Assembly: GCA_044892505.1 (NCBI GenBank)
Contig: CM097882.1
Span: forward strand, 111,538,001 to 111,602,000
Origin: Schmidtea nova
Lineage: Eukaryota
DNA length: 64,000 bases
Reading direction: 5' to 3'
Below the pieces are notes generated by a model. That model searched no databases. It was not told the origin of the DNA and was given only the letters and a program-made list of their open reading frames with translations. Made by a program: the position numbers and the translations under genes. Shown here piece after piece: positions 1,643-44,618 of the stretch (position 1 is its first letter; the number at the start of each line of letters is the position of its first letter).

Positions 1643-2731
1643 TTTAAAATATAATTAAATTAATTTTTAAAATAATTTAAATAATACTTTTTTCAACCAA
1701 TGAAAATTGTTTAATTTTAATCAAAACACATAAAAAAATTTTGTATTGCACTTTGATAAATGCACACTTAGATTATTATTTTTATAATTATTATTGTTAT
1801 AATTATTATTGTTAACGGTATATTTGGAGTTTTGGGTTTTATTTGTCTTGAATATCTCATTAACAAATTTAAGGTAGACCTTGACGGTGAAATGTGAAAA
1901 ACATGAATACACAAATCACCTGTCAATGAGGCTTCATTTGTTTCATTTCAAAGTGCACTGAAGTCCAAATCGTGAATCCAAAGTTTCAATAAAGTCTAAA
2001 ATAATAATTGGCATGATGGAAATTACTATTCGCCGCCGATTATGTAACGCGCATGCAAATCTGATCTGATATGATTATCATATAAAGATCATGTAATGTT
2101 AACGCTTTATCTAATCGGGACCGAATTTCACATTGAATCTATGAAGAAATCCAAGAATTATATTATTTTTGTCTTTTTCTACTTCGGCCTATTAATTGTT
2201 CCAGTCGTTCCTGTATACTTTTAATGAAACGCGTATGTAACATTAAAACATAATTTGTTACGAATGTTACTGGCATACAATATTGGCCATGGCCATTTTA
2301 TGCGTATATACCAACTGTGATTTGTTTAACAAAAAATAAAATTATGACATACTAATAAAAGTCATGCATAAGATTAAGTTAATTAAGAACGCAAAAATCA
2401 CAATTTTTGTTCATATGAAGAAATTAATTACGTCACGCAAAATTTACATTTGTTTTTCCATATAGACCCCTTCGACTGTCATACGCACCGGTAGGCAAAA
2501 TCTCTCAAACTAACAACTCTTCATCTTCTCTCTTTCTTTTAATTAATTAATTATTTAATTAATTATTAATTATTTAAACAAATAAAAAATTTTTTTAATG
2601 CATAAACAAAGTAAAAGTACAGAAAGACACTGTAAAATTGCTAGACGATGAATGAGAAAAGAGATTATTATTCATGGAAGACTATTTGCTAATAGTAGGG
2701 GATAGTGAGGACTCGTCACCACTTTTTTCAA

Positions 2732-3460
2732 CTAGCAACGGTTGCTAGGGTAAATACACACATCAAGATATTCCTCGAGTCATGTATTGCTAAGGTAAGC
2801 ACACACATTACTATATAATTACCGGGGAAGAAGTTGCTAAGGTAAAAACACACATCAAGATATTCCTCAATGCAGGTGTTGCCAGGGTGAACGTGCACAC
2901 ACATCAGTATATATTCCCCGAGGATCCTGTTGCCAGGGTAAACACACACATCAATATATTCCTCGAGGCAGGTATTGCTAAGGTAAGCACACACATTAAT
3001 ATATAATTACCGGGAAGATATTGCTAGGGTAAATACGCACATTAAAGTGTAGTGCATTGGAATTTGTTGTTAAGATAAACACGCGCGTATAAGGAGTCCC
3101 CAAGGAACCTGTAGTTAAGGTAAACACACACACATCATTATATATTCACTGAGGAACCTGTTTCCAGGGTAAACACACACATCAATATATATTCATATAG
3201 TCAGATGTTGCTAAAGTTAACACATACATATCAATATATAGTCCTGGGGAAGATATAGTTAAGGTAAACACACAGATCAATATATAGTCCCGAGGAACCT
3301 GTTGCTGGGTAAATACACACATTAAAGTATGGTCCCCCTGTAACTATTGCTAAGGTAACCACACATGTTAATATTTAAGTCCTGAAGTAACTATTGCTAA
3401 GATAAACACACCATTGTGTAACCCCATGACTACTGTTGGTAACGTCAAAATACACAACAT
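2732..3460. repeat. Degenerate tandem array of about 15-16 units of 42-51 bp, headed by a palindrome
   Basis: Units start TTGCTA(A/G)GGTAAA(C/T)ACACACAT at 2742, 2787, 2834, 2879, 2930, 2975, 3021, 3067, 3112, 3161, 3208, 3256, 3302, 3347, 3394; palindrome CTAGCAAC-G-GTTGCTAG at 2732-2748. Confidence 0.92.
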
Positions 3461-10001: not shown

Positions 10002-10417
10002 CCTTTGATCTTTTTTTATTATTATTATCAATAATTCTCATAATGACTATAGATCAAAATTTTTTTTTATAAACAATAACACAATATTTCGGCACAGCCT
10101 TTATCAAGTGTGTATTTCTATCGTTATATTTACTTAATCCTAAATAGTAGCCTTAATTATTTTTTTAATATTTTATAATGATTTTATTGGATGAAAAAAT
10201 TTATTTTATTTTAATTTTTTTGTGCGAATTGAATGTTGATGGACGGTTTGTATTTTTTTATGAAAAAAGTCTCGGAAGCTAATCTTTGTAATGAATTTTT
10301 GAATCCCTCTTGTAGGATCTGGCATTTTGTTTCTTCTATAGATGGAGTTGTTTTATGTACTTTTTCCCAGTGTTCGTAATAATTACTGGTTTTGATTTTA
10401 TTTTTATCTATAGTCAT
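10002..10417 (-). mobile_element. 3' end of a Penelope-like retroelement (GIY-YIG endonuclease C-terminus plus 3' tail)
   Basis: QILQEGFKNSLQRLASETFFIKKYKPSINIQ resembles the Penelope GIY-YIG C-terminal RL..E.LFIK..KP.LN.Q motif; 10002-10114 recurs at 37870-37982. Confidence 0.72.
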
Positions 10418-10563: not shown

Positions 10564-11584
10564 ATTTATTTATTATGTATATTATTACGTTGTGTATTAT
10601 TATGTCGAGAATAAAGGTGTGTTGAGGGAGAAGTTGTAGAACCCGAGAGAGTCTTACAATATCGGTGTGCAGACATTCGGGGTGTATGCTGTGTAATTAG
10701 GTGCCTGTATGTGTTGCACGAATTTACAATAATTCAAAATAAAGAGTGAAAACAAATAAACAACTTCCAACAATCAACTATATTTTATAAACATACAGTT
10801 ACTCATGTATCCAACTTTCAAGGGAATCCTTGTAAATGAAAATTGCCTGAGATAACAATATTTGATAGAGAAAAGGTAAATTGATGTATGGCTGTTTCTG
10901 TTATTGGGATTGATAAAATAAATTATTATTTGGACCAAGTACTGTTTGAAAATTGATCAAACTGTTGTATGGCCGATTCTGCTATTGGGACTGATAAAAC
11001 AGATTGATAAAGTAAATGGATGTATGGCCTTTTTCGACGTCTATTTCCCACTTTCCAATTTCGCCATTTAAACAATTTCGCATATATTTAATTTCTGCAT
11101 TCTTCCCAAATTTTCAAATCAATATTCTTAATTTGTGTAGCTTACTATAGTTATTTACTATAGTAAACTTTATGTTCAAAATTCGAAATTTGAATTTTGA
11201 TTATAATATTTTAATTATTATAATACTGTAAAAATTAACCAAAAAGAGGGCGGGGTACCTCACCTTTACAATAGAAATCGCAATCACATATAATAATGAA
11301 ATAATAAAGACAATAATAAACAATAATAAAAATAACCTAAACAGTAAAATACGACATTAACATAACTTCCCCCTTTAAAACCGGAGGTTAACATTTAAAC
11401 GAAATTTACAGATTACCAACGTTATTAACCTATTTTTGTTGTTTTGTTTTGTTTTGTTTTGTTTTTGTTTTGTTATGTTTTACAACAATTTAACACAATA
11501 AGTTACATATTTACAAAAATGTCAAAAACTATACAATTAGCTATGTTGTGCATGTGTTTTGCTTGTGTGTATTTGTGTTTTTAT

Positions 11585-14500
11585 TTAAAGCATTCGCTGT
11601 ATCGTTTTATGTATAGGGGTGTGATTATTGTATCTTTGTCGAAAAGTTTTATTGTGTTTTTGTGGTTGAATGTGATGTGTTTGTGGTTTGATTGTGTTTT
11701 TGTTTGCGTCGGTGCTTTTTCTTTTGTGGGGTTGTTTGAGATGTTTTGATTGTTGTGATACGTTTTTATTCGTCTTAGATTGATTCTTGTTTTGATGTTG
11801 TCTTTTATTATTGTTGCCACATTTTTTGTTAATTTCCAGCAGTTTGAATGGGCCTTCGTATTTTGGTTCGAAACCTTTAGTGAAGGGCTTTTTAATTAAG
11901 ATGTATAATGTCGTCAGAACTACTTTTCCGTCCATTTCAGAGTTCGCTCTCTTTTTTAGGATTCCTTTTAATTTAATTTCTACTCTTTCGTTGTTTGTGT
12001 TGGTTGTTTGTTTGTTTGTTTCTGCGTTTTCTGCTGTATTGTTTTTAAGTGTTGGGAGATTTGATTCTCTGACAAAGAGTTTGTACGAAAAGCTTTCGTT
12101 GTCGATCGATTTGGGAGTGTTTTTTAATCCTAGTAAAATTGTCGGTAGTTCAGACAACCAATTTCTGTCGTTCGCTTTGGTTCTGATGCATTGTTTAAGT
12201 GTTCTATGCAGTCTTTCAACTTTTCCATTCGCTTGTGGGTTGTAAACGGTTGTTCGGTTCCGTTTTATTTCGTATTTTTTACATAGAGCACTAAATATTT
12301 CTGATTCAAATTGCCTCCCTTGATCTGTTATTAGTATCTTGGGTTGTCCGTAGCGAGCTATCCAATTTAGCTCAATGTTGTTACATATATTTTGTGCGGA
12401 TATTTATTTTAATGGGACGATTTCGAACCAGTTTGTCTTTCTGTCGATGATTTTTAGTAGGTAGTTGTACCCGTTGTTTGGTGGTAACGGTCCTACTATG
12501 TCAATGTAAATCATCTCGAAAGGTTGACTGCTTGGAAAGTTTACTTTTTGTGCTATTGGTTTTTTTGATATTTTACTGATTTGGCATTTTTTGCATGTTT
12601 TGACGAAATCTTTGATTTCTTTCCTCATGTTTGGCCATATGTATTTGTTGTGGATTATTTCATAGGTGGCTCTGCTTCCTGGATGACTAATGTCATGTAT
12701 TTTCGACATACACATTTTTCTAAACTCTTTTGGTAAAAGTATTCTTGGTGTAGTTTCGTTGCTGACATCGTACCAGAGGTCACTTCTTTTCTCTAGTTGC
12801 AGACTGTGTTTTATTGGAAGCTCTTTTAAGGTTTCTGATTGTTTGTTTTTGATTTGTTCATTTTCAATCAGTTAGTCAAATTCTAGTGCATTTATATCTG
12901 TTCCTATTCTTGTAAGGGTATCTACTGCAATGTTTGCGGCTCCGGCTATATAATTAATTGTGCAATTAAATTGTGATATATAATTTAATTGTCTTATTTG
13001 TCGTGGTGATGGGTTTTTCATTTGTATCGCGTTTAATAACGGTTTGTGGTCCGTATAGATTTTGAAGTTTCTTGCTTCCAGTAGGTGCTGGAAGGGTTTG
13101 ATGGATTCATGTATCGCGAGTAGTTCTCGATCAAAAGTTGAGTACCTTGTTTGATGTGTTTTTAGTTTTTTTGAGAAAACCCCGATCGGTTGTTTGCCGT
13201 ATTCGTTATCTTGATATAAGGTTGCGCCCATTGCATATCCAGAGCAGTCTGTTGCTAGGTTGTAGTCTAGTTCTGGATTTGGATATCCGAGTAATGTTGT
13301 TTGAGATGAGCTTGTTTTTGCTTTTTCAAACTGTTTGGTTGTTTGTTCGGTCCAGTTTATTTTAATATTTCTTCTTGTTTTGATCAGGTCGTTTAATGGA
13401 GCTAACAGTTTGCTGCAGTTTGGGATGTAAGCATGGTAAAAGTTTACCATTCCCAAAAATCGTCTAAAATCTCTGTTTGTGTTTGGCAATTTAAACTCTT
13501 GTATTGGGCTTATTTTCTTGTCTATTGGCTTTGTGCCTTTTTCATCCAGTGTGTGTCCAAGAAAATTAATTTCTTTTTTCAAAAATTCGCATTTTTGAAT
13601 GTTTATTTTGAGATTTGCTGAGTTCAGCGTTTCAAACACCTTTTCGATGTCTTTTAAATGAATAGTTTTGTTTGGACTTGCTATGAGTATGTCGTCCAAA
13701 TAAGCTATAGTGTTCTGGTTATTTTTCAGAGTCTTGTCCATAAATCGTTGAAATGTTGCAGCTGCATTTCGCAAGCCAAATGGCATTCTATTGTATTCGA
13801 ACATGCTGATTGGTGCAACGATTGCTGTTTTTTTAATGTCTTCGTTCCTGATGGGTATTTGGTGATAAGCCTTCTGTAAATCTATTTTCGAGAAGAGTCT
13901 TGCACCTTTTAGTATGTTTATTATGTCTCTGATGATAGGCAGTGGGTAGTTGTCTGGTTCTGTGATTTTGTTGAGCATTCGGTAGTCACCACAAGCTCTC
14001 CATTCCCCGTTTGCATTTTGTTTGAGAATGAGTGCAGAGGACTAATCTGAGTTCGAATGAGTTACTATTTTGTTTTTTAGTAACTCCTTGAAAATTTCGT
14101 TTGTAATTTTTGTTTTTTGTGGATCTAGTTGTCTCACCTTTGCATGCACTGGGTTTCCGTTTGTTATAATTGCATGTTCGGTTGAGTGATCCGCGTCTTT
14201 GTCGAAGGATACTGGTTTGATGAGTTTTTCAAATTTTCCCAGTAGTTTATTTATTTCTGGGTCATGATTCAATTTTTGTTTTTGTTTATTGTTAGGTGGA
14301 ACCGTTTGGATAACACCGATGTCAACTCTTGAATTGGTTGTCACCATGGTTTTGACAGTTTTTTTGTTTGTGCTTGTATTTTCAGTTAATGTTTTATTTC
14401 GGCAGTCTACTGTGAGGTTGTAATTTGTTAGGAAGTCTGCTCCTAGTATTGCTTGTTGGACCTCAGCTATGGTGAATGTCCAGTTGTAATTTTTTTTGTT

Positions 14501-14720
14501 TATGGTTAAATTTATTGTTTATTGCCCGAAAGTTTTTATGTTTGTGCCGTTAGCTGCTGTTAATGGTTTTTCTGTTTTGTTGGCATTTTTATACATAAAA
14601 TGGGGCAGTAATGAAATCACCAAGCCGGTGTCTATTAAAAGATCTATGTTATTTGTGTGCACCCAAAATGTGTTGTTTTTGTCACCTGATGTGGGTGCTA
14701 TCATTGGTGACCTTATTGGT
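11585..14720 (-). pseudogene. Gypsy-1 pol (PR-RT-RH-IN); four in-frame stops, no frameshift seen
   Basis: LIDTG (PR), WRACGDYRMLN, FSKIDLQKAYHQI, YLDDILI (RT), DCSG, ELLAI, TDHKPL (RH), HPG..C..C, IDIVGP, TDQGRQF, NGKVER (IN), KYEGPF; stops at 14519, 14042, 12872 and 12404. Confidence 0.95.
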
Positions 14721-16782: not shown

Positions 16783-17234
16783 TGCTTTTATTTATGTGTT
16801 GCTTGTTGATATAAAAGAATGAGTGTATTTAAAAGATATAGCCTACTGTGTTCCGCTAAAAGTGACGTTAATCCTTATACCTCTATAGTAGGTATGCTAA
16901 AGGCGTTAACGTTTAAAAAAACGACGATTTGTGTGTGCTGTGTAGACTTCTGACACCTGTTTTTATGGTAATATGTTGTGATTTATTTATTATGTATATT
17001 ATTACGTTGTGTATTATTATGTCGAGAATAAAGGTGTGTTGAGGGAGAAGTTGTAGAACCCGAGAGAGTCTTACAATATCGGTGTGCAGACATTCGGGGT
17101 GTATGCTGTGTAATTAGGTGCCTGTATGTGTTGCACAAATTTACAATAATTCAAAATAAAGATTGAAAACAAATAAACAACTTCCAACAATCAACTATAT
17201 TTTATAAACAAACAGTTACTCACGTATCCAACTT

Positions 17235-17951
17235 TCAAGGGAATCCTTGTTGTAAAATCATCAATTGAACGGCCATATAATAATCTTTATTCGTTTCCAT
17301 AACAAAATAAACATCATTGATAATTCCATTCAACCCGTGTAACGCACAGTAGGTCAATATTTGTGCCGGTAATCCAACCAAAAGATTTGGCGGCTCAAGC
17401 AATTTTATGTTCGAATTTGAAATTCCACCAACAAATAAGCATCGAATTATCGGGAAAACATCATTGAGATCTTGTTTCAGATAACAGCTGAGTGATAATC
17501 GCGATAAAACATATATTTCACAACTATTATTATTCAATACAGAAAATATTTGTTTTACAACTTGGTGCACATATTCATTGGGAACATTTATTCTACATAA
17601 GCAATATATAATATCACTCTGGTTCGCTTTATACATTAATATGTTTTTATCTTTCAATACATTTTGATTCAAGGAATTCTTTATTTCAATCGAAGTTGGC
17701 AATTGAATTGATGCAACCATTCTCTCACCACAATTCAGTATCTGCTCTTGAACACAAAACGAAGACGTAATATCCGCTCCGACTATGAATTCATTCAATT
17801 CATCATCTCGAATTTCCTCACTAACACAAACAACAGAATTATAATCAACTGGAACCTCATTCTCAATGCCAAATTTCTCAAAATCACTAAGTTGAATTTC
17901 AGACCATGTTACCATTAATTTGACCGAAACTCCCTTTTGAAAGACCAACAT
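17235..17951 (-). CDS. PSMG1: Captured proteasome assembly chaperone 1 ORF in the 3' LTR; C-terminally truncated, reads into the flank to a TGA
   Basis: [20 protein letters not shown] and [18 protein letters not shown] resemble recalled PSMG1 motifs CQC.CYVAEDQ..QW..KVF and LEQPNIV..LPAAVLSYC. Confidence 0.8.
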   Translation of the reverse strand: MLVFQKGVSVKLMVTWSEIQLSDFEKFGIENEVPVDYNSVVCVSEEIRDDELNEFIVGADITSSFCVQEQILNCGERMVASIQLPTSIEIKNSLNQNVLKDKNILMYKANQSDIIYCLCRINVPNEYVHQVVKQIFSVLNNNSCEIYVLSRLSLSCYLKQDLNDVFPIIRCLFVGGISNSNIKLLEPPNLLVGLPAQILTYCALHGLNGIINDVYFVMETNKDYYMAVQLMILQQGFP

Positions 17952-18186
17952 GTTACTGATTATTCAAACAACTCACTTTAAAATCCAAATTCTCCTATTA
18001 ACTCTAAAATAAAAACATAAAAAAATCAATCTCACCAAAATTTCTCTCACCACCACCAATGCACACACATACGCACACAAGAATCCCCCAACAACCACAA
18101 CAACAAAAAACGAGTGCGCACACAGACGCCAGCTCGAAACCCATTGCGCACACAGACTACAAAGTCTGGTAGAGCACAGACGAACA
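17251..18186 (-). repeat. BEL/Pao 3' LTR (contains PSMG1 ORF)
   Basis: TGTTCG...TTTACA termini on the minus strand; directly follows the PPT; AATAAA at 17286-17291. Confidence 0.93.
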
Positions 18187-18199
18187 TTCCCCCCCTTTT

Positions 18200-21100
18200 G
18201 ACTCCTCGTCAACTCTCATCGTTAACTCCTTTTTTGCCAACCCCCTTTTTTCTCTAAAATTTTCTTGATTCTCTGCTTCTACTTCCAAGGGGCAAAGTTG
18301 AGATATTGGGCGAATCACCTCTTTCCATTTACTCCACATCTTTACTACTAAAATCCACACTAACTGACCTGCTGTTAACTCTTCTTGATATGATCTCCAC
18401 TTGGCTCTGCTTATCCATATCGGCACAAGTTCTCTCTTCCATCTATTCCATACTTGATTGGTTAACTCTACCGTCCTTTTCCATCGTCGCTGAATATTAG
18501 TTTTCTTATTAGTTTTTATTTCATTAGTCTCGATTTCTGACCATCTGGGCATTAAAAATGGTTAGGTGTCAGTACTTCAAGTCCTTTTTCATCCTCACTC
18601 TTTGTCGTCAACGGTCTGGCATTTAGAAATCCTTCAATCCGTGCTACTACTGTCAGCATCTCTTCATCTGTAATATCTGCATAGCTCTTTTCATCGATTT
18701 TATTAACGCCTCATAAACCTCTCCGAAATTTGGACCGGCTGGAGGATTAAACACCCATCTTCTTCTCCCGAGCTGTCAACTCCTTCGTTATCTTATAACC
18801 ATCGATTATCACATCTTTCAATTCCCCCGTTGCTCCCACGAAATTAGTACCGTTGTCTGATAACATCAACACTGGTTTTCCTCGTCGTCCAATGAATCTT
18901 ATTAAAGCTTGTATAAATGAATCCGTTGTTAATCCGTACACTAATTCCAGATGCACTGCTCTAGTTTGTAAACATGTAAACAAACACACATATCTCTTTA
19001 GCCTCGCTTTTCCTCGGCCTGGATTGTTAAGAATGGGCCCGCAAAATCAACCCCCACTTTTCCAAATGGTCTAAATGGTTCCGTCAATCGAAATGCAGGT
19101 AGTGGAGCCATCTTCTGGAACCGTCCAGAAGCTCGTCTCTTTTTACAGATTAGGCATTCAAATTCTACCTTCTTGATTTCTCTTTTGGGTTGCGTTATCC
19201 AAAACCTTTCCTGCAGATCGCTTAATAAATGATTTGTTCCGGCGCAGTGATCTCTGTCTTGATGATATTTTCTTATTATCAGTCTAGTCACCCATCGTTT
19301 GGCACTTAATATTATCGGGTATCTTGCTTCTAATGTCATGAACTCTGCATTTATGATTCGACTGTTACTCCTGAGTAATCCTTCTTCATCGAGCATTGGA
19401 TTCAAACTTAGTATTTTGCTTTTTTTATACAATGGTCTTCCGTTTTCTAACTCTCGTATCTCATCCTTAAAGATCTCATTTTGCTCCTCTCGAATTACTA
19501 TCGCTTCAATCTTTTTGATTTCGTCGGTTGTTAACTCCCCACTTCAGAGTTCCTTTTTGTTTCGACAATTATTTGCGAATCTATGCACCCATGCTCTTAC
19601 TCTGAGCAATCTTTTCCACGATGAATAGGTTTCAGGTTGCCAACAGTTTACTTGATATTTTTCAGGTTGCTCTTCTTCTAAATTTATGACAAATGTCACT
19701 TGCTTTCTTTCTCTATTTTCATTTACCTGTATATCTAATTTCGTCTTTGGCCAATTTCTTTCAAAGTGTTTTAAAAAAGGTGGTCCTTCCCACCACATAT
19801 TATCTCCTATATGATCTGACGCCGACATTCCCCGAGTGGCTATATCTGCTGGGTTGCTTTTGGTAGGAACGTAACGCCATTGTTCAGCATCTGTCTCGCT
19901 CTGAATGGTACTCACTCGGTTGGCAACAAACGTTTTCCATAGTCTTGAATGATGACGAATCCAGTGCAAGGTATCTTGACTATCAGTCCAAAACATGACA
20001 TTTTTCAATTCATATTGTAACGCCTTTCCAACTTTCTTAGCTAACTTTAGACCCAAACATGCGCCCATCAATTCCAATCGTGGAATGCTGATAACTTTAA
20101 CTGGAGCTACTTTTGCTCGTGCCGCAACAAATTTCATTTTAACCTTGGCGCTCTCTTCTTCCCTAAGCTAACAAACAGCTGCATAGGCAGTACTAGACGC
20201 ATCAACAAATATATGTAAGCGCCACGGATTGCTTTGCTTCCCCAATAATCTCCTTGGAATCATTACTCGATTCAATAACTCACACTCTTCCATCCAACAT
20301 CTCGCTCTTTTTTGTAATTCTGGGGGTAAAACATCATCCCACTTGCTTCCCATCATCCACGCTTCTTGCATTAGGCATTTGCCAACAATTGTGAATGCAC
20401 TAAGCATTCCCAAAGGGTCAAAGATAGGTGCTATCCAACTTAATAACATTCTTTTCGTGATTTTCACATTATCTGTCGTTCGTCCTACAAATCTCAATAA
20501 ATCGTCCGTTGAGAGCCAGTACATCCCCAATGTCTTCATCGTGACTGTTCTATTTTCTTCTATTGTTAACGACTTGGCTTGCTCTTCGATCGGAATTGTT
20601 TCCATTACTTTAATCGAGTTTGACATCCACTTTCTTGCCCTCATTCCTGCTTCTGCCCACAGTAACTTCAGATCCTCTTTAAGAATTAGCGCTTCTTCCT
20701 CCGTCTCTACTGAGTCAATGCTGTCATCCATGTATGTAGATTTTATTATGGTCTCTGCCGCTCTTGCGTAACTTTTTTCATATCTTCTCGCGTGTTGTTG
20801 GGTTACATATTGTGCAAGAAACGGGGACGTATTCAACCCGAAAACTAGTATTGAAAATTCAAATTGCACAATCTTCTCACCCTCTTTCCACAAAAATCGT
20901 AAGTAAGGTCTGTCCTCTTCCGCTATTCTTATTTGTAGATACATTTCGGCGATATCGCTTACTATGGCTACCTTAAACCGTCTGAATCTTAACAAAATTT
21001 CGAAAAGATCATTTTGCAATTTCGGTCCCGTTTCCAAAACATCATTTAAACACTTTCCATTACATTTTGCTGCAGCGTCAAATACAATCCGGACTTTCGA

Positions 21101-23020
21101 CGTTTCTTTTTCCTTTCTTACAACGGGAAAATGAGGTAATATCTACTTCGTTCCCGCCTTTTCTTGTTCACTTAACCTCCTAATGTAATTCTTACTTTCA
21201 TGATCCTTCAAAATTCTTTCATATTCCTTCTTCAGCTCTTGATTTTTATCTAATCTTTGCTTTAAACTTTCTAGGCGTTTCATCGCCATTTGTGTATTAT
21301 TTGATAACTCTTCTTTTCCAGATTTCCACGGCAAACTCACTTGGTAAAACATTCCTCTGTTAACCATCTTTTCTTCCGTAATTTTAATAACTTCACGATC
21401 CCCTTTGGTCAAGAGCACCGGGTTCTCCTTTAAGTTCTCGATTTCCCAGAACAACTTTACCTGTCCAACTAACTCCTCGTCCTTGGATAAATACGTTTGA
21501 ACAAAGTTGGTTTGGTGGGTCAGTGACACGCCCAACGTATTTCCACCTACACAGGTCCAACCAAGCGGAGTTAATCTAGCGATTGGTTCGTCCATCTTTC
21601 CATCCACTTCCTTCAGCGCTCTTTGTAAACCTAAATAATCAGCTCCAATAAGAACTTGCACCACTTGCCGTTCATCAAGCATTGGAAACCGTATATCCTT
21701 TAGATGTTCCCATTTCCATTTTTCCTTTGCCCAATTTATCACTCGCATTTCCCCGGTTACACTCTTCACCGCTGCAGCTGTAAACTTTTTCCTCATCTTC
21801 TGATCATAACTTATCAACGTCATCGTGACTATTCTTGTTGTCATATTTTGAATATGACCTCCGATGACGCTCACAGGAACTATTTCCTCTTTCCCCTTTA
21901 GACCCAACTCGTCTGCAATACTCTGACTTATGTAGCTAATGGAGCTTGCATCGTCTAACAGCGCATTTACTTTAATTTTCTTCGCTCCATGCTCAAGGTA
22001 GATTGGTATGGTCCTCAAGCTTAGATATTTTCGCTCTTTTGTTAATAATTCATCTTTAGTAGCCGACATCAATGTGTTTTCCTTCCTTTTGGACTCTAAC
22101 TGATCCACATGAAGTAGGTTACTGTGTTTCAGCTTACACCCCTCTCTAGTACAGAATGAAGCCTTTCGACATTCCGACGCTACATGATCAGACTTTAAAC
22201 AATTAAAGCATAACTTCCAGTCTCCTACTGCTTTACGTCGCATTGCGGGGTTCATTTCTTTAAATTCTCTGCATTGATCCAAGTAATGATTTTCCTTGCA
22301 TTTCCAACACTTCAACTTTGTGCTCAACAATCCGTCTCTTGGTATGTTTGTCTTGTCCTCCTTCCAATCTGCTACTTGCCCAACAAGTGTCCGGTTCCCT
22401 TGCCTTAGATTCACAAGTTCTCTTGACGGTCCATCCTGCCTCTTCCAATCGTTTCTTCTATTGCCATCACCGACTCCATAAAGGGTTTCTTTTGTTAATC
22501 TTAACAGCTCGACTTCATCTTGTAACCAATTTCTCAAATCTTGGATACATTCGGTTACCTTTTCCTCCTTAAAATCTTTCTTCCACTTGTATAGCAGCGA
22601 GCTGGGTAGCTTTTGCAGGCATCTCTTCAATAAGTAACTATTTTTCATTTCGCCCTCTCGTCTATTATTAATAATTCTAACTTCTAGCGTTTCCAATAGT
22701 CCAACAAATGCCTCTATTTCCAGCATTTCATTCTCACGAACGGGTCGGAATCTGTCGATATCTTCCAGAGCAGCTAAGTAATTTCGTTCTTCCCCGCCAT
22801 ATCTTTTATCGAGCTTTTCCTTTGCCATTTTGTAACCAGTTGCAGAAAATCCTAAATTTTCGATCAACCTTAGCGGTTCACCTTTCAGATAAGATCGAAG
22901 GTGTAACATCTTTTCATCATCATCTCCATGGGCACTATCAACACAAGTATGGAAGGCAGCTTTCCAACTTTCATATTCTTTCTGGTGTCCATCAAATATC
23001 TGGATCCATATCTTCTGCAT
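18200..23020 (-). pseudogene. BEL/Pao gag-pol (Gag, three Zn knuckles, PR, RT, RH, IN, C-terminal RRW domain); several stops and frameshifts
   Basis: FDGHQKEYESW, CWKCKENH..C, CFNCLKSDH..C, ALLDDAS, LPHFPV, RIVFDA, DIAEMYLQI, YMDD, FVDAS, IPRLEL, FVANRV, NPAD.ATRG, VDFAGP, SDNGTNF, RRW...W.RW; stops at 21143, 20168 and 19544; frameshifts near 19010 and 18760. Confidence 0.96.
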
Positions 23021-23089
23021 TTTATCTAGTCTTTTCTTCGTTTCATTCCCACCTACCTCTTTGGTTGTATTGCTGTCATCCGACCTAAC

Positions 23090-23386
23090 TCACTGATTGG
23101 CCTTTGACGAAATTAACTCTTCCACCTTCTCGTTCTTATTTTCTATCTCTTGTAAATCCGCTTCTAGCCCCGTTGTTGTATCTGACCTTCTTAATCTTTT
23201 ACTAATATCCACCAATCGTTCAAAATTCTCTATGGCACTTTCCATAGCTTCCTGATATTCATCAAGGACATGTGCTGCATCTTCTGCCAACATATCATTC
23301 ATCCATATATTCCTTAATTTTGTCAACCTGTACTTAATACTCCTCTTCTTTCTCAAGCCTTCTTCTAATTCCTCCGCTTCATCCTT
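23090..23386 (-). pseudogene. BEL Gag N-terminal helical region, in frame with the C-terminal half of the upstream ubiquitin
   Basis: [26 protein letters not shown] follows directly after LSLCGG; separated from the Gag core at 23020 by a stop and a frame change. Confidence 0.7.
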
Positions 23387-25241
23387 CCCTCCACACAAAC
23401 TCAGTGATAGATGAATAGTAGACCCCTTTTGAATGTCGTAATCTGACAGGATTCATTCTTTCGCCTACCAATTGTTTACCTGCAAATATCAATCTCTGTT
23501 GATCAGGGGGGATTCCCTCTTTGTCTATGATCTTTTCTTTTACTTTCGCAATAGAGTCCCTCGATTCAACTTCCAGTGTTATGGTTTTACCTGTTAAAGT
23601 CTTAACAAAAATCTGTATTCCGCCTCTCAATCGCAAAACAAAATGTAAAGTTGACTCCGTTTTATTTTCTTTCACTCGCGAACTATAATCTTTAAAACTT
23701 GTCCTTTCATCAGCACTTGACATTGAATAAAAACGAAATAATTTCCCTATTCTATTCATATTTACCCTGTCTTCATTAATACCCAATTTAATATTTTTAG
23801 CAACTTGATCATAGAGCTTTTTATAATTACCTTTATCTCCCATTATTCCTACAAAAAGTTCTAGGCTTTTCCCCACTAACTCTTTTCTGATTACTTTCAA
23901 AGTTTTATCTTGTTGCAACATTTCCCGTTTGATATTCAATAGGAAATCTTCACTATCGTAACCAGTGCGCCTACTAACATCTACACATTTGAATATCGAA
24001 ATATCTTTTTCTATACATATTGCTTCATAAGCAGGTGACACAATTTTATCTCTTTGTCTATTTAATTCAATAAATGATCTTTGTTTATTTTCAACTTTCA
24101 CGCCTTCAATTGTATCGTTGCATGCGACTTCTAAAGTGATGGGTTTTCCCGTTAAAGCTTTTAAAATTATCTGCCTTTCCTGTCTCGCTCGCCCCACCCT
24201 ATGCAGATACCTCTTACGAGCACCTTCCTTACCAATGTTTTCCCGGAATTTAAAAGAATGCTGGGGCCCAGAGCAGCCGTCTTTCACAATATCCGGTGGC
24301 CAAGCCATTCCAACTTTCACTTCCCTTTCAATAGTTACCTTCAACTTTCGCCTCTTATCCCTTAACCTCACTTCCCATTCAAAACGCGCTTGGGAGGGAA
24401 TGTTGGTCCATACCCCAATTACAAATTTAACCCATTTATAAAAATGTACAAAAAACATAAAAGAGTCTTTAATAAAAATGTATACTAACAGATTTCCAGA
24501 GTGTGCGTGGCCCCCCGGTGGAAACCACGCTCTGCTACCATGTAAAATCATCAATTGAACGGCCATATAATAATCTTTATTCGTTTCCATAACAAAATAA
24601 ACATCATTGATAATTCCATTCAACCCGTGTAACGCACAGTAGGTCAATATTTGTGCCGGTAATCCAACCAAAAGATTTGGCGGCTCAAGCAATTTTATGT
24701 TCGAATTTGAAATTCCACCAACAAATAAGCATCGAATTATCGGGAAAACATCATTGAGATCTTGTTTCAGATAACAGCTGAGTGATAATCGCGATAAAAC
24801 ATATATTTCACAACTATTATTATTCAATACAGAAAATATTTGTTTTACAACTTGGTGCACATATTCATTGGGAACATTTATTCTACATAAGCAATATATA
24901 ATATCACTCTGGTTCGCTTTATACATTAATATGTTTTTATCTTTCAATACATTTTGATTCAAGGAATTCTTTATTTCAATCGAAGTTGGCAATTGAATTG
25001 ATGCAACCATTCTCTCACCACCATTCAGTATCTGCTCTTGAACACAAAACGAAGACGTAATATCCACTCCGACTATGAATTCATTCAATTCATCATCTCG
25101 AATTTCATCACTAACACAAATAACAGAATTATAATCAACTGGAACCTCATTCTCAATGCCAAATTTCTCAAAATCACTAAGTTGAATTTCAGACCATGTT
25201 ACCATTAATTTGACCGAAACTCCCTTTTGAAAGACCAACAT
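23379..25241 (-). CDS. 620-aa chimeric ORF: PSMG1 (in the 5' LTR) - PBS/leader - Ub fragment - HSP90 fragment - Ub tail - Ub
   Basis: Single open frame in the ORF track; component motifs as listed in neighbouring features. Confidence 0.75.
23387..23618 (-). pseudogene. Captured full-length ubiquitin unit (58/76 identical to canonical after repair), broken by a 4-bp GAAT duplication
   Basis: [18 protein letters not shown]...[18 protein letters not shown] then [21 protein letters not shown]; unit length 232 nt = 228+4; ATTCATTC at 23451-23458. Confidence 0.95.
23661..23965 (-). pseudogene. HSP90: Captured HSP90 middle-domain fragment (about 100 aa) embedded in a ubiquitin unit
   Basis: [28 protein letters not shown]...[10 protein letters not shown]...L.RFYSM..DE.TS.KDY..RVKEN matches recalled HSP90 [28 protein letters not shown]...NIKLGIHED. 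Confidence 0.93.
24084..24173 (-). pseudogene. Ubiquitin N-terminal fragment (about residues 2-30); its C-terminal end ([13 protein letters not shown]) is at 23619-23660
   Basis: [26 protein letters not shown] versus [26 protein letters not shown]. Confidence 0.85.
24521..24540 (-). promoter_or_regulatory. Primer-binding site complementary to initiator tRNA-Met
   Basis: TGGTAGCAGAGCGTGGTTTC immediately after the LTR end (..TTTACA). Confidence 0.93.
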
Positions 25242-25476
25242 GTTACTGATTATTCAAACAACTCACTTTAAAATCCAAATTCTCCTATTAACTCTAAAAT
25301 AAAAACATAAAAAAATCAATCTCACCAAAATTTCTCTCACCACCACCAATGCACACACATACGCACACAAGAATCCCCCAACAACCACAACATCAAAAAA
25401 CGAGTGCGCACACAGACGCCAGCTCGAAACCAATTGCGCACACAGACTACAAAGTCTGGTACAGCACAGACGAAAA
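24541..25476 (-). repeat. BEL/Pao 5' LTR (contains PSMG1 ORF 24541-25241)
   Basis: Offset 7290 from the 3' LTR; 8 substitutions, no indels. Confidence 0.93.
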
Positions 25477-26000
25477 TTGAAAATTGCCTGAGATAACAAT
25501 ATTTGATAGAGAAAAGGTAAATTGATGTATGGCTGTTTCTGTTATTGGGATTGATAAAATAAATTATTATTTGGACCAAGTTCTGTTTGAAAATTGATCA
25601 AACTGTTGTATGGCCGATTCTGCTATTGGGACTGATAAAACAGATTGATAAAGTAAATGGATGTATGACCTCTTTTGAAGTCTATTTTCCACTTTCCAAT
25701 TTCGCCATTTAAACAATTTCGCATATAATTAATTTCTGCATTCTTCCCAAATTTTCAAATCAATATTCTTAATTTGTGTAGCTTACTATAGTTATTTACT
25801 ATAGTAAGCTTTATGTTCAAAATTCGAAATTTGAATTTTGATTATAGTATTTTAATTATTATAATACTGTAAAAATTAACCAAAAAGAGGGGGGTACCAC
25901 ACCTTTACAATAGAAATCGTAATCACGCATAATAATGAAATAATAAAGACAATAATAAACAATAATAAAATAACCTAAACAGTAAAATACGACATTAACA

Positions 26001-30280: not shown

Positions 30281-31672
30281 TAGGTTTGACCGGAAAGTTT
30301 CTGCAGTTAGAAAAATTAATGCCATTCAAGTTTCTGCAGTCACATTGATCAATGAATATATATTTAACAAAGACAAATAATTTTATGAACCAAATTAATC
30401 ATCCATATCATCGAGGAACTCAAAATAGTTTCCACCATGCTGGATGCAACGTTGCCAACGTGCAGGGAGCTTGTTAATGCCAACTGCGAAGAAATTTTCA
30501 TTTTATTCTCTAACCACGACTCTAGCTGCACTTGAACATCTTGTGCGCAGTTGAATGTCTTGCCATGTAGAGCTGATTTGAGTGGGAGAAGAGGTAGAAG
30601 TCTGATGGGACTAGATCAGGTGAGTATGGTGGATGTGGTACGACGTTGAGATGAAGTTCAGCCAGCTTCGCCTGAGTTATATGAGCGGTATGTGGCTTAG
30701 CATTGTCATGTTGAAGGTAATGGCATCAATCCAATATTCTTCTTTGTTTTTTATCCAGCAAAGCATCCTTCAAATTGTCAAGCAATGAGCAATAATGGTT
30801 GGCATTCATTGTTGCACCGCAAGGCAAAACATCCATTAAAATGACCCCCTTGCAGTCCCAAAAAATTGTTAACAAATGTTTCTTGCTGGTAAAATTGCCT
30901 CTCACCTCAGTATGTGGTTCGTCACCAGCTCCTCGCCATGATCGATGGTGTTTGCTCACACTTCCATGCCAGTAGACCCAACTTTCATAAATGGTGATCA
31001 TACAATGCAGGAAATTGTTTTTTTCATACATTTACAGAAGTATTCTGCACACATCCACTCTTTTTTCCTCTTATGCGTCCGTTAAGAACTGTGGAATCTA
31101 CACTGTTGAAAGATATCGCTTTCCCATCTTTAGTAGATGACTTCTCACTGTCTCTCTTCCAACTTGTAACTCAAAAGCAATTTCTCTAACAGAGGCAAGA
31201 GGATTCTCATCAAGAATTGCTTCAATCTGGTCATCTATGTCACAGGAAGGTCGTCCACTTCGTGCGTTGTCCTTTACGTCGAAATCTTCCGCCTTGATTT
31301 TGGTAACCCATTCATATCATGTTCGAATACTCACTGTTCCTTCCCCTAATGTGTTGTTGATTTCTTTTTCGATGTCTCTGTTGATAAGCCTCGTTTCCAG
31401 CAGTAGTAAATTAGTTTTCTAACGTCTTCGCGATTAAAATCAATGATGTTTTCAATTTAAAGCTAAATTCTGCATAAACGGAAAAAGACAATATAAACAA
31501 ATTAAACAGTTTCATTAAAATGACATTGATATTCTTAGTTTTTTTAAACCATATTTCGTTTATAACATCAAAATATATCCTTCTCTGTGTCCACAAAATT
31601 TGAAATATATGATTGCATAGATCTTGAATGGCATTAATTTTTCTAACTGCAGAAACTTTCCAGTCAAACCTG
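30281..31672 (-). mobile_element. Mariner (DD34D) DNA transposon, decayed
   Basis: About 50-bp TIRs GGTTTGAC(C/T)GGAAAGTTTCTGCAGTTAGAAAAATTAATGCCATTCAAG; LLTIFWDCKG, QHDNAKPH, HPPYSPDL. Confidence 0.93.
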
Positions 31673-36919: not shown

Positions 36920-37897
36920 CTGTTTTGTTGGTAATGTAATTAACGGAGTATAGTAGCCGAGCATGTGAGCTTTGTTTCCAAAATTACTCAAACCAACTCT
37001 GCTCTCCTGGTGTTGATTGCCGATGGAAGGATTTACGCCAATCCTCGCTCTTAGTTCTCTTTATGATTCACTGGGGTCTTAAATCAATCGTTTCTCATAA
37101 TTTTCATTTGACTCTAACGACTGGTAAATCATCCTTGAAATTAAAATCATAATTTACGACAGCTGAGAATGTTAACAAGAAACACTTATTATTGTACGAC
37201 ACAAATATACAATTTAGTTTAGTTATAACAGGAATATCTTGTCAATCAGTTTCTGATTAGAAGAGGTTCAGAAACCAATTTGCTTCTTCAATTGAGCTTT
37301 AAATTGGACCTCTCTCCGCTTCTTCTGGGTCATTTTTACTAGATATACGGATGGAAATATCTACTGATTTGAGTTTTATGGTAGCCTCATTCAACATTAC
37401 CAATTCTGAATCTTTACTTTTACAGATCAGATGGATCCATAAAGCCAATTCCTTATTGATGAAAGTACAATTCAGAGCATTTTGACAATATCGTAATTAG
37501 GGCATAACCGAGTAGATAATATCCCTTTGGCTTATCGACATCGGGCAAGTTTCTGATGAAGATCTTGGACATAGGAAGAGACAAAATATGACACCAACTC
37601 GGCTATGTGCTCTTCCGATTTTCTCTGAGCTCGCTAATCTCAAATTTTCTGCATCTTTAAACGTTTACAAGCAGTTATTTGTTTGGCGTTAATAAACTTG
37701 ATAATATCAATGAAATATAAAATTTAAAATATAATGTAAGATTCTGACCTTTTACGCCAACATTTTCCTTCTCTCTACTATCCTTTATAGTAATTTTTTT
37801 AAATTTAGTTAAGGTGCTAGTATTTCTACATTTACTCGACTTAAATATTAGCATAATTATCTTTTTTCACCTTTGATCTTTTTTTATTATTATTATC

Positions 37898-38080
37898 AAT
37901 AATTCTCATAATGACTATAGATCACAATTTTTTTTTATAAACAATAACACAATATTTCGGCACAGCCTTTATCAAGTGTGTATACACACTTGAAATACAC
38001 ACTTGATAAAGGCTGTGCCGAAATATTGTGTTATTGTTTATAAAAAAAAATTGTGATCTATAGTCATTATGAGAATTATT
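37898..38080. repeat. Perfect fold-back: 85-bp inverted arms (37898-37982 / 37996-38080) with a 13-nt spacer; made of Penelope-tail sequence
   Basis: Arm-by-arm complementarity including the T9/A9 run; the spacer begins with a copy of TACACACTTG. Confidence 0.95.
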
Positions 38081-38278
38081 TATTATTAAATATTAGCATC
38101 CTTAATTTTAAAAGATTACAGCCAAACGTAAATCAAGCCATTAAATCATCAACTTTTATTAAGAAATAAAACACAAATAACTAGAAAATCATGTTTCTTG
38201 AAATTTCATTTCTCGACCGTAGTCACCCAGCATGATATTTAGGTATAACGAATTTGCACATCACCAAATAGGCTTCCG

Positions 38279-43761: not shown

Positions 43762-44618
43762 TGTAAAGGTTATATCTTGTTGTTATCTTTATTTTTATTA
43801 TTGTAATTATCATTATTATTATTGTTAACGCCGTCATGATTATGGTGGGTGTCCTTGCGGACACCGGATAACCACACATTTTTTATTTTGTAAAATAATC
43901 ATAAAAATAGTAAAATTTAAAATCAAAAAAAATCAATTCCTATAGTAATATAAATTCCTATAGGAATTTGACAATTAGAAAATTGATTATAAAATTAAAA
44001 AATTAGAAATAAGTAATTGACTAAAAAATTCTAAAAATTTAACCAGGACAAAAACGATAAACCCGAAAAGGAATCAAATTAAAAGAAACTAAGAAGCTAC
44101 CCAAAGAAAATTTAATGACTATTTATGATTTGTGATTTATCCAATCTATGACTAATTATCCACTGTGAGTACCGGTTATTCTTTATTTCTTTAATAAATA
44201 CAAGTTGTTATTATAAATATTGTTTTGGTTTTGTTATAATTTTTTATTGATATACACCCAAAAGCACGTACACAACAAGCACCAAGAGTGTCTCCACACA
44301 ATATTGGAAGACTCTCTCGGGCTCTACAAATCTCTCCTTCAATACACATCCTACACACAATGTTAACCAAAAACATTATTTCCACACAACACTAATCGAA
44401 AACTTTATTCACAATATAATTCACAATATAATTCACAATATAATTCACAACATAATTCACAACATAATTCACAACATAATTCACAACATAATCCACAACA
44501 TAATCCACAACATAATCCACAACATAATCCACAACATAATCCACAACCCACTAATTCTCAATATAGTTGGTGTCCTCAACTTAAATACTCATCAAAAACT
44601 TTATATTTCAACATAACA
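43762..44618 (+). mobile_element. Solo LTR, 857 bp, 5-bp TSD GTTCT; related to the Gypsy-1 LTR family
   Basis: TG...CA ends; GTTCT at 43757-43761 and 44619-44623; removal rejoins the transposase as VLDRTNSSIRKSAMIL; TTGTAGAGCCCGAGAGAGTCTT core shared. Confidence 0.9.
44410..44547. repeat. 12-bp minisatellite: 3x CACAATATAATT, 3x CACAACATAATT, 5x CACAACATAATC
   Basis: Counted directly from the sequence. Confidence 0.95.

Follow-up and report, generated by a model that had tools for sequence, protein, structure and literature searches.

The window analysed here, a stretch of 64,000 nucleotides of the Schmidtea nova genome, contains an 8.2-kb LTR retrotransposon (17251-25478, minus strand; all the features of this element lie on that strand) which carries a mosaic of captured pieces in front of its gag gene. 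Read in its own direction, the element comprises: a 5' LTR of about 938 bp (24541-25478), its ends checked against an uninterrupted target, with a captured piece of the spliced host PSMG1/PAC1 mRNA (24596-25274; PF16094, E 3e-11); a primer-binding site, TGGTAGCAGAGCGTGGTT (24523-24540), read through in frame as GSRAWF and presumably of the initiator-tRNA-Met type; an in-frame leader of 114 codons (24174-24521); residues 2-24 of ubiquitin, from unit 1 of the host tri-ubiquitin (24105-24173); a segment designated piece X (23961-24104); a fragment of the HSP90 middle domain, host residues 374-474 (23664-23960); the HSP90/ubiquitin junction (23655-23663); a ubiquitin tail, residues 64-76 of host unit 2 (23619-23657); a complete ubiquitin, its Met1 read as Ile, fused directly to Gag (23387-23618); gag-pol (18160-23386), with several stops in this copy; a polypurine tract, seen in the sequence directly before the 3' LTR (18189-18201); and the 3' LTR (17251-18188), of the TG...CA form and with a second PSMG1 piece. 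We classify the element as BEL/Pao on the Pfam domains of its gag-pol, which are, in order, DUF1759, a zinc knuckle, protease, RT, Peptidase_A17, an integrase zinc domain and DUF5641. The LTRs are 99.1% identical over 938 bp. The 5' LTR is damaged at its outer edge, where the terminal bases have been lost, and a target-site duplication is not readable there.

A single frame extends from 25253, within the 5' LTR, as far as 23382 and takes in PAC1/PSMG1, the primer-binding site, the chimera and the second ubiquitin; the break in the frame of the window copy falls near 23460, within the complete ubiquitin. There are at least 40 close copies, all of the 40 scored (of 1,736 candidates) matching the region at 87-100%. 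At C2:332.25-332.27 Mb, C1:485.05-485.07 Mb and C3:80.72-80.74 Mb of the same genome, 3 to 6 copies of the element follow one another head to tail, regularly spaced at about 5-6 kb and apparently sharing LTRs. The BEL element itself sits in one LTR of a decayed Gypsy-like element (10564-11331 and 16981-25970), which it splits at a position equal to 10833/10834 and whose RT and RNase H-like ORFs lie at 12872-14518. Other repeats in the window are: 49-nt terminal inverted repeats (30282-31671) flanking a remnant at 30726-31031 that we take to resemble a mariner transposase; a near-perfect hairpin with 92-nt arms (37892-38086), one arm of which recurs at 10002-10118; and tandem arrays of units of about 46 nt (2708-3411) and about 12 nt (44381-44548).

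The preliminary description of this locus was confined to 23619-24173 and read that interval as an in-frame chimera containing about 100 amino acids of the HSP90 middle domain. The chimera is indeed there (24173-23619: ubiquitin front, piece X, HSP90, ubiquitin tail), and the HSP90 assignment was confirmed (PF00183 positions 184-283, E 3.5e-30; residues 389-489 of human HSP90-alpha); the main part was missed, namely the second, complete ubiquitin that follows at 23618-23387. The host HSP90 loci (L032, L033) align to 23957-23655 without gaps at 85.5% nucleotide identity. The junction reported earlier, AAT AAA ACG GAG, is present in the window copy, and the microhomology proposed behind it is found in the host genes: HSP90 reads AAT CAA AAG GAG ATT at this point and unit 2 of the host tri-ubiquitin (L043) reads ATA CAA AAG GAG TCA ACT TTG CAT TTG, both sharing the exact 9-nt run CAAAAGGAG. 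This run occurs in 1 of the 14 host ubiquitin units examined, and an older copy of the element (L040) is one substitution away from it. Of the 458,280 in-frame breakpoints between the host HSP90 and ubiquitin sequences, 126 lie in an exact run of at least 9 nt, which puts the chance of such a match at 2.7e-4. The ubiquitin tail is also closest to unit 2 (36/39 nt; 39/39 in an older copy).

That real host genes agree exactly over 9 nt at this point supports an origin by microhomology-guided template switching of the reverse transcriptase, as had been suggested, and so does the loss of an intron from the PSMG1 piece; intron loss is uninformative for HSP90, whose host gene is intronless in this stretch. 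The partners of the switch had been given as two host mRNAs, and this part of the proposal may not hold. In one copy (L041) HSP90 continues 7 codons beyond the junction, to residue 482, without ubiquitin; the switch may therefore have joined an element RNA that already carried HSP90 to a ubiquitin mRNA. On a small contig, a host HSP90 copy (L035, 955-2760) turns BEL-like exactly after CAAAAGGAG, possibly another switch at the same run or an assembly join.

The front of the chimera has a separate history. Its ubiquitin part extends over residues 2-24, not 2-30 as previously given, and is closest to unit 1 of the host (62/78 nt; 55 for the next best unit). Front and tail derive from different units (1 and 2, respectively) and are not the two parts of a split ubiquitin, and the front is missing from older copies. 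HSP90 was accordingly not spliced into a single ubiquitin, contrary to the earlier reading. Split-ubiquitin complementation was considered and rejected, residues 25-63 being absent and the pieces coming from different units. The middle segment, previously put at about 40 amino acids, does exist, but its extent was underestimated: piece X corresponds to the 3'-terminal part of a segment that spans about 100 codons in related copies, and in some other copies this longer form stands in place of the front ubiquitin. Neither piece X nor the 114-codon leader matched Pfam. Searches for the donor of piece X yielded nothing but element-like copies in the own-genome protein search (150 of 640 candidates scored) and none of 127 candidates at E 0.01 in the protein-database search.

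Copy L088 carries residues 2-70 of unit 1 ubiquitin (85% identity, against 77-78% to the other units), followed by other pieces (one of them a further stretch of HSP90) and after these by piece X; the window form joins the L088-type front ubiquitin and piece X at a shared TTGAA. As judged from this sequence arrangement, the front ubiquitin appears to be the remnant of a separate, later capture of ubiquitin 2-70, cut short by a deletion at this TTGAA. The older copies L038-L040 have HSP90 residues 286-475, the same junction as the window and no front ubiquitin. The leader was thus built through several captures and deletions and not by one splice, and the HSP90 and junction would have preceded the front ubiquitin. 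The HSP90 tree, used as a hint with 9 of 22 inner branches well supported, fits a single capture that was later trimmed. A single-sequence AlphaFold prediction of 23466-24173 had low confidence (pLDDT 31.6), even across ubiquitin. Within the leader, a 37-nt stretch (24241-24277; GPQHSF codons) is shared at 86-89% with an otherwise different sister family and is possibly a packaging or dimerisation signal.

Selection along the frame is uneven. Compared with the host gene, the HSP90 piece has a dN/dS of 0.94 in the window copy (Fisher p 0.83), 0.85-1.34 in all 9 of the close copies tested and 0.45-0.80 in 4 older copies. Variants were counted in 29 copies (L006 was left out as the tandem twin of L005): dN/dS of the shared variants was 1.86 in the 114-codon leader, which is neutral in sequence and has no shared stop, 0.66 in HSP90 and 0.19-0.20 in Gag, the shared variants of HSP90 (10 synonymous, 29 nonsynonymous) differing from those of Gag (60 and 48; p 0.0015). 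From the primer site to the ubiquitin tail, all 9 stops and all 10 frameshifts in these copies are private and none is shared (p 0.0006); some of the private breaks may be assembly errors. HSP90 is also being eroded in frame: several copies have lost sequence within it (99 host residues over 261 nt; 89 over 240 nt), and its extent has shrunk from residues 286-475 to 374-474. A dN/dS of about 1 together with frequent frame breaks among copies had been named as the mark of a neutral passenger; the first was found, whereas the breaks are private and none is shared. HSP90 therefore rides along neutrally in a reading frame that is held open: what is protected is the frame and not the HSP90 residues. 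With neutral drift and in-frame erosion, the idea that the fragment acts as a protein decoy is not supported.

The complete ubiquitin behaves differently from the HSP90 piece. Its final GG, immediately before Gag, is kept in 61 of 63 copies counted, and the GG of the first tail in 47 of 74 (both counts drawn from 82 loci, a few of them overlapping). Between element lineages, dN/dS over the whole ubiquitin is 0.03-0.10 in 6 of 8 pairs, the other 2 being saturated at synonymous sites; among 16 copies of the sister family, shared-variant dN/dS is 0.12 in ubiquitin and 1.53 in the HSP70 piece that precedes it. Gag has no Met of its own in the window's family, and it begins directly after GG as NDEEE in two divergent families. 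Selection thus keeps the reading frame and a complete ubiquitin just before Gag. The C-terminal end of this ubiquitin is LRLRGG in 21, LRLCGG in 33 and LSLCGG in 4 of the 63 copies. Arg74 is important to many deubiquitinases, and the LRLCGG and LSLCGG ends may be cut poorly by them. Among outside relatives of the Gag, 6 of 152 have ubiquitin, or its end, directly before Gag, and one of these six (P0127) combines in one chain a GSRA motif like that of the primer site, HSP90 (profile positions 283-348), ubiquitin and a BEL Gag. A protein search with Gag only gave 2 matches, neither listed with a ubiquitin domain, and the matches of a search with ubiquitin plus Gag were swamped by polyubiquitins.

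The arrangement is widespread in the genome. A 22-nt primer-site pattern had 1,066 exact matches and its reversed control none. In the first 30 of these matches, along contig 1, at least 80 open codons precede the primer site in the read-through frame in 27 cases, against 0 and 1 for the remaining frames (medians 199, 7 and 10 open codons, respectively), and 14 of the 30 elements have a junction of the HSP90 type. The in-frame LTR cargo was scanned in 15 of them and had a Pfam match in 9; among 57 control ORFs from the other five frames there were 4 matches (2 sense off-frame cargoes, 1 probably belonging to a neighbouring element and 1 repeat artefact). The LTR cargo includes PSMG1, HECT, EF-hand, FKBP plus TPR, enolase, ThiF (UBA1-like), AdoMet decarboxylase, CCT, Dcc1, ANAPC2 and an ABC membrane piece. 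In the window, the PSMG1 cargo holds a 5' leader, what is probably the start codon of the host gene (ATG, 25205) and some 200 codons that share their frame with all the parts that follow; it is 91-93% identical to the host locus (L093), and the 46-nt GT-AG intron of the host gene is precisely absent from it, so it was captured from RNA.

FKBP plus TPR cargo is abundant (359 candidates; examples in the LTRs of L075-L078, L081 and L085). It is called FKBP6-like here on the basis of Pfam and of the best single-domain PDB match of its FKBP domain (human FKBP6, E 1.8e-16 over 134 amino acids). A host gene for it was not found, the two candidate loci being partial, deleted matches. FKBP6/Shutdown and HSP90 act in piRNA loading, and FKBP6 is an HSP90 co-chaperone.

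In the sister family one frame leads from the LTR through the HSP70 piece and ubiquitin into Gag-Pol, exceeding 2,200 codons in 2 of the 5 stretches examined. HSP70 is joined at the same ubiquitin site as HSP90 (Lys63/Glu64), through the near-match AAG(A/G)AATC. Gag-pol is retained downstream of the cargo in both families, some copies lacking RT. Three copies of the sister family (L061, L063, L065) have an extra in-frame leader stretch before HSP70, with no Pfam match, that we take to resemble glutathione reductase. Compared with their host genes, the PSMG1 and HSP70 cargoes have dN/dS values of 0.42-0.52 (p 0.005 and 0.035), which counts against pure neutrality; synonymous change on the host side could explain these values, or the cargo may be under weak constraint.

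The reading that we favour, at a probability of about two in three, is that translation starts in captured 5' pieces of host mRNAs, that the leader is a free cassette and that deubiquitinases cut after the last GG and so free Gag. The frame of the polyprotein begins upstream of Gag, usually within the LTR, in pieces of host mRNA that microhomology-guided template switching would have brought in, and it passes the primer-binding site and the mosaic leader into ubiquitin-Gag-Pol. By analogy with known ubiquitin fusions, host deubiquitinases would most likely cleave after the last GG, leaving the N-terminus of Gag fixed whatever the leader contains. Six Met codons stand in frame in the stretch that separates the primer site from ubiquitin, and a start within the LTR is therefore not strictly required. 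Some observations count against release of Gag by ubiquitin: Cys74 is frequent in the window lineage; the shared-variant dN/dS of ubiquitin there is 0.44, distinguishable neither from private variants (p 0.17) nor from Gag (p 0.19), and there is one shared stop in it; and in one older lineage a Met directly follows the GG.

The same ubiquitin could instead be retained as a domain of the mature protein: a folding aid, an interaction tag (ESCRT/particle assembly) or a degradation signal that tunes Gag. Purifying selection over the whole fold and the frequent change of Arg74 to Cys in the window's lineage agree with such a role, which we nevertheless consider unlikely, as the final GG is kept even in the Cys74 copies and an uncut Gag would bear a variable leader of 300-600 residues. 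Attention to the cargo leads to other explanations. The preliminary description suggested that the HSP90 fragment, or small RNAs made from it, could blunt silencing, HSP90 being needed for Argonaute/Piwi loading. For the protein version, a dominant-negative fragment that blunts this loading, the open frame and the frequency of the HSP90-type junction are in favour, and the dN/dS near 1, the shrinkage and partial in-frame losses of the piece and the equally neutral HSP70 found in its place in the sister family make it highly improbable. A conflict at the RNA level needs no constraint on protein and is compatible with release of Gag by ubiquitin: cargo from essential mRNAs would make silencing by piRNA or siRNA costly, since the small RNAs would hit host genes too, and the element would hold them hostage. 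Much of the cargo does come from essential genes (HSP90, FKBP6-like, UBA1-like, CCT, ubiquitin), FKBP6-like cargo is plentiful, HSP90 pieces recur (the second piece of L088 and that of the outside protein P0127), and a model of this kind is described for maize, in a paper whose abstract itself finds the advantage to the elements less obvious (10.1101/777037). The model leaves the strong bias towards in-frame, sense-only cargo and the conserved ubiquitin unexplained; HSP90 has drifted to 85% nucleotide identity with no sign of sequence conservation, and the presence of enolase and AdoMet decarboxylase is as expected of mRNAs that are simply abundant. We regard this as a rather unlikely explanation of the cargo.

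If Gag is released by deubiquitinases as we favour, the retrotransposon would amount to a naturally occurring system of expression by ubiquitin fusion and a case of convergence with the ubiquitin inserts of pestiviruses, and ubiquitin before Gag would explain how continual capture of host sequence at the 5' end is tolerated without harm to Gag. A broader and more tentative proposal is that the capture of ubiquitin turned this BEL/Pao clade into a standing platform for gene capture, in which in-frame host 5' pieces supply starts and regulation and are then cut off by deubiquitinases; host translational control could be swapped in this way, and hundreds of fragments of essential genes (HSP90, FKBP6-like) would have spread, perhaps holding silencing hostage. 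With more than 1,000 dated captures in frame, this one genome would serve as a data set for the rules of template switching, the co-packaging of mRNAs and a possible damping of piRNA silencing by captured essential genes. Such copies are prone to be mis-annotated as paralogues of HSP90, HSP70, ubiquitin or FKBP.

Several components have precedents in the available text of the works concerned: capture by template switching (PMC5131818), ubiquitin as a processing signal (PMC8310069) and conflict over captured genes (10.1101/777037). In its LTRs, primer-binding site and polypurine tract, and in having DUF1759 Gag, RT, Pao Peptidase_A17 and integrase in BEL order, the element resembles other BEL/Pao elements (Belpaoviridae; PMC3118150). 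A term search of the main text of that survey did not find the word ubiquitin, and in the passages covered no coding sequence carried by an LTR and in frame with Gag came up. Neither ubiquitin-Gag BEL elements nor in-frame LTR cargo was found described in the literature covered, which included PMC3118150 and PMC11410931 and left supplements, most subscription titles and Repbase Reports outside its scope. According to the portion available of Tan et al. 2016, LTR-mediated retroposition proceeds by template switching and has a Pao element (BATUMI) among its carriers (PMC5131818). Partial capture of mRNAs, multi-gene chimeras and a tendency to sense, in-frame insertion are common to those retrocopies and ours, and microsimilarity at the switch point has a median of 6 bp there and is 9 nt here. 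The retrocopies described there replace internal ORFs and give non-autonomous passengers, whereas here the cargo comes in addition to gag-pol, ahead of Gag and even within the two LTRs, belongs to the element's own polyprotein frame and is shielded off by a conserved ubiquitin. Burro/GYPSM1, giant Gypsy elements of planarians, have host-like polyprotein domains, including a Ubi2/SUMO-like motif, as reported in the part of PMC6431247 at hand; those accessory domains are stable and lie downstream of Gag, in contrast to the swappable, neutral cargo upstream of Gag and the near-canonical ubiquitin of the BEL/Pao element.

The closest likeness is to cytopathic pestiviruses (BVDV Osloss, CP1 and CP Rit), in which, as set out in the available sections of PMC8310069 and PMC13517609, a captured host ubiquitin stands directly before a viral protein, is often preceded by another host coding fragment and is cut by host ubiquitin hydrolases to give an authentic N-terminus. 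Cleavage has been demonstrated in BVDV and would take place by analogy in the retrotransposon. As far as those same sections describe it, the pestivirus insert is an evolutionary dead end, whereas the ubiquitin of the retrotransposon is old, inherited and under purifying selection.
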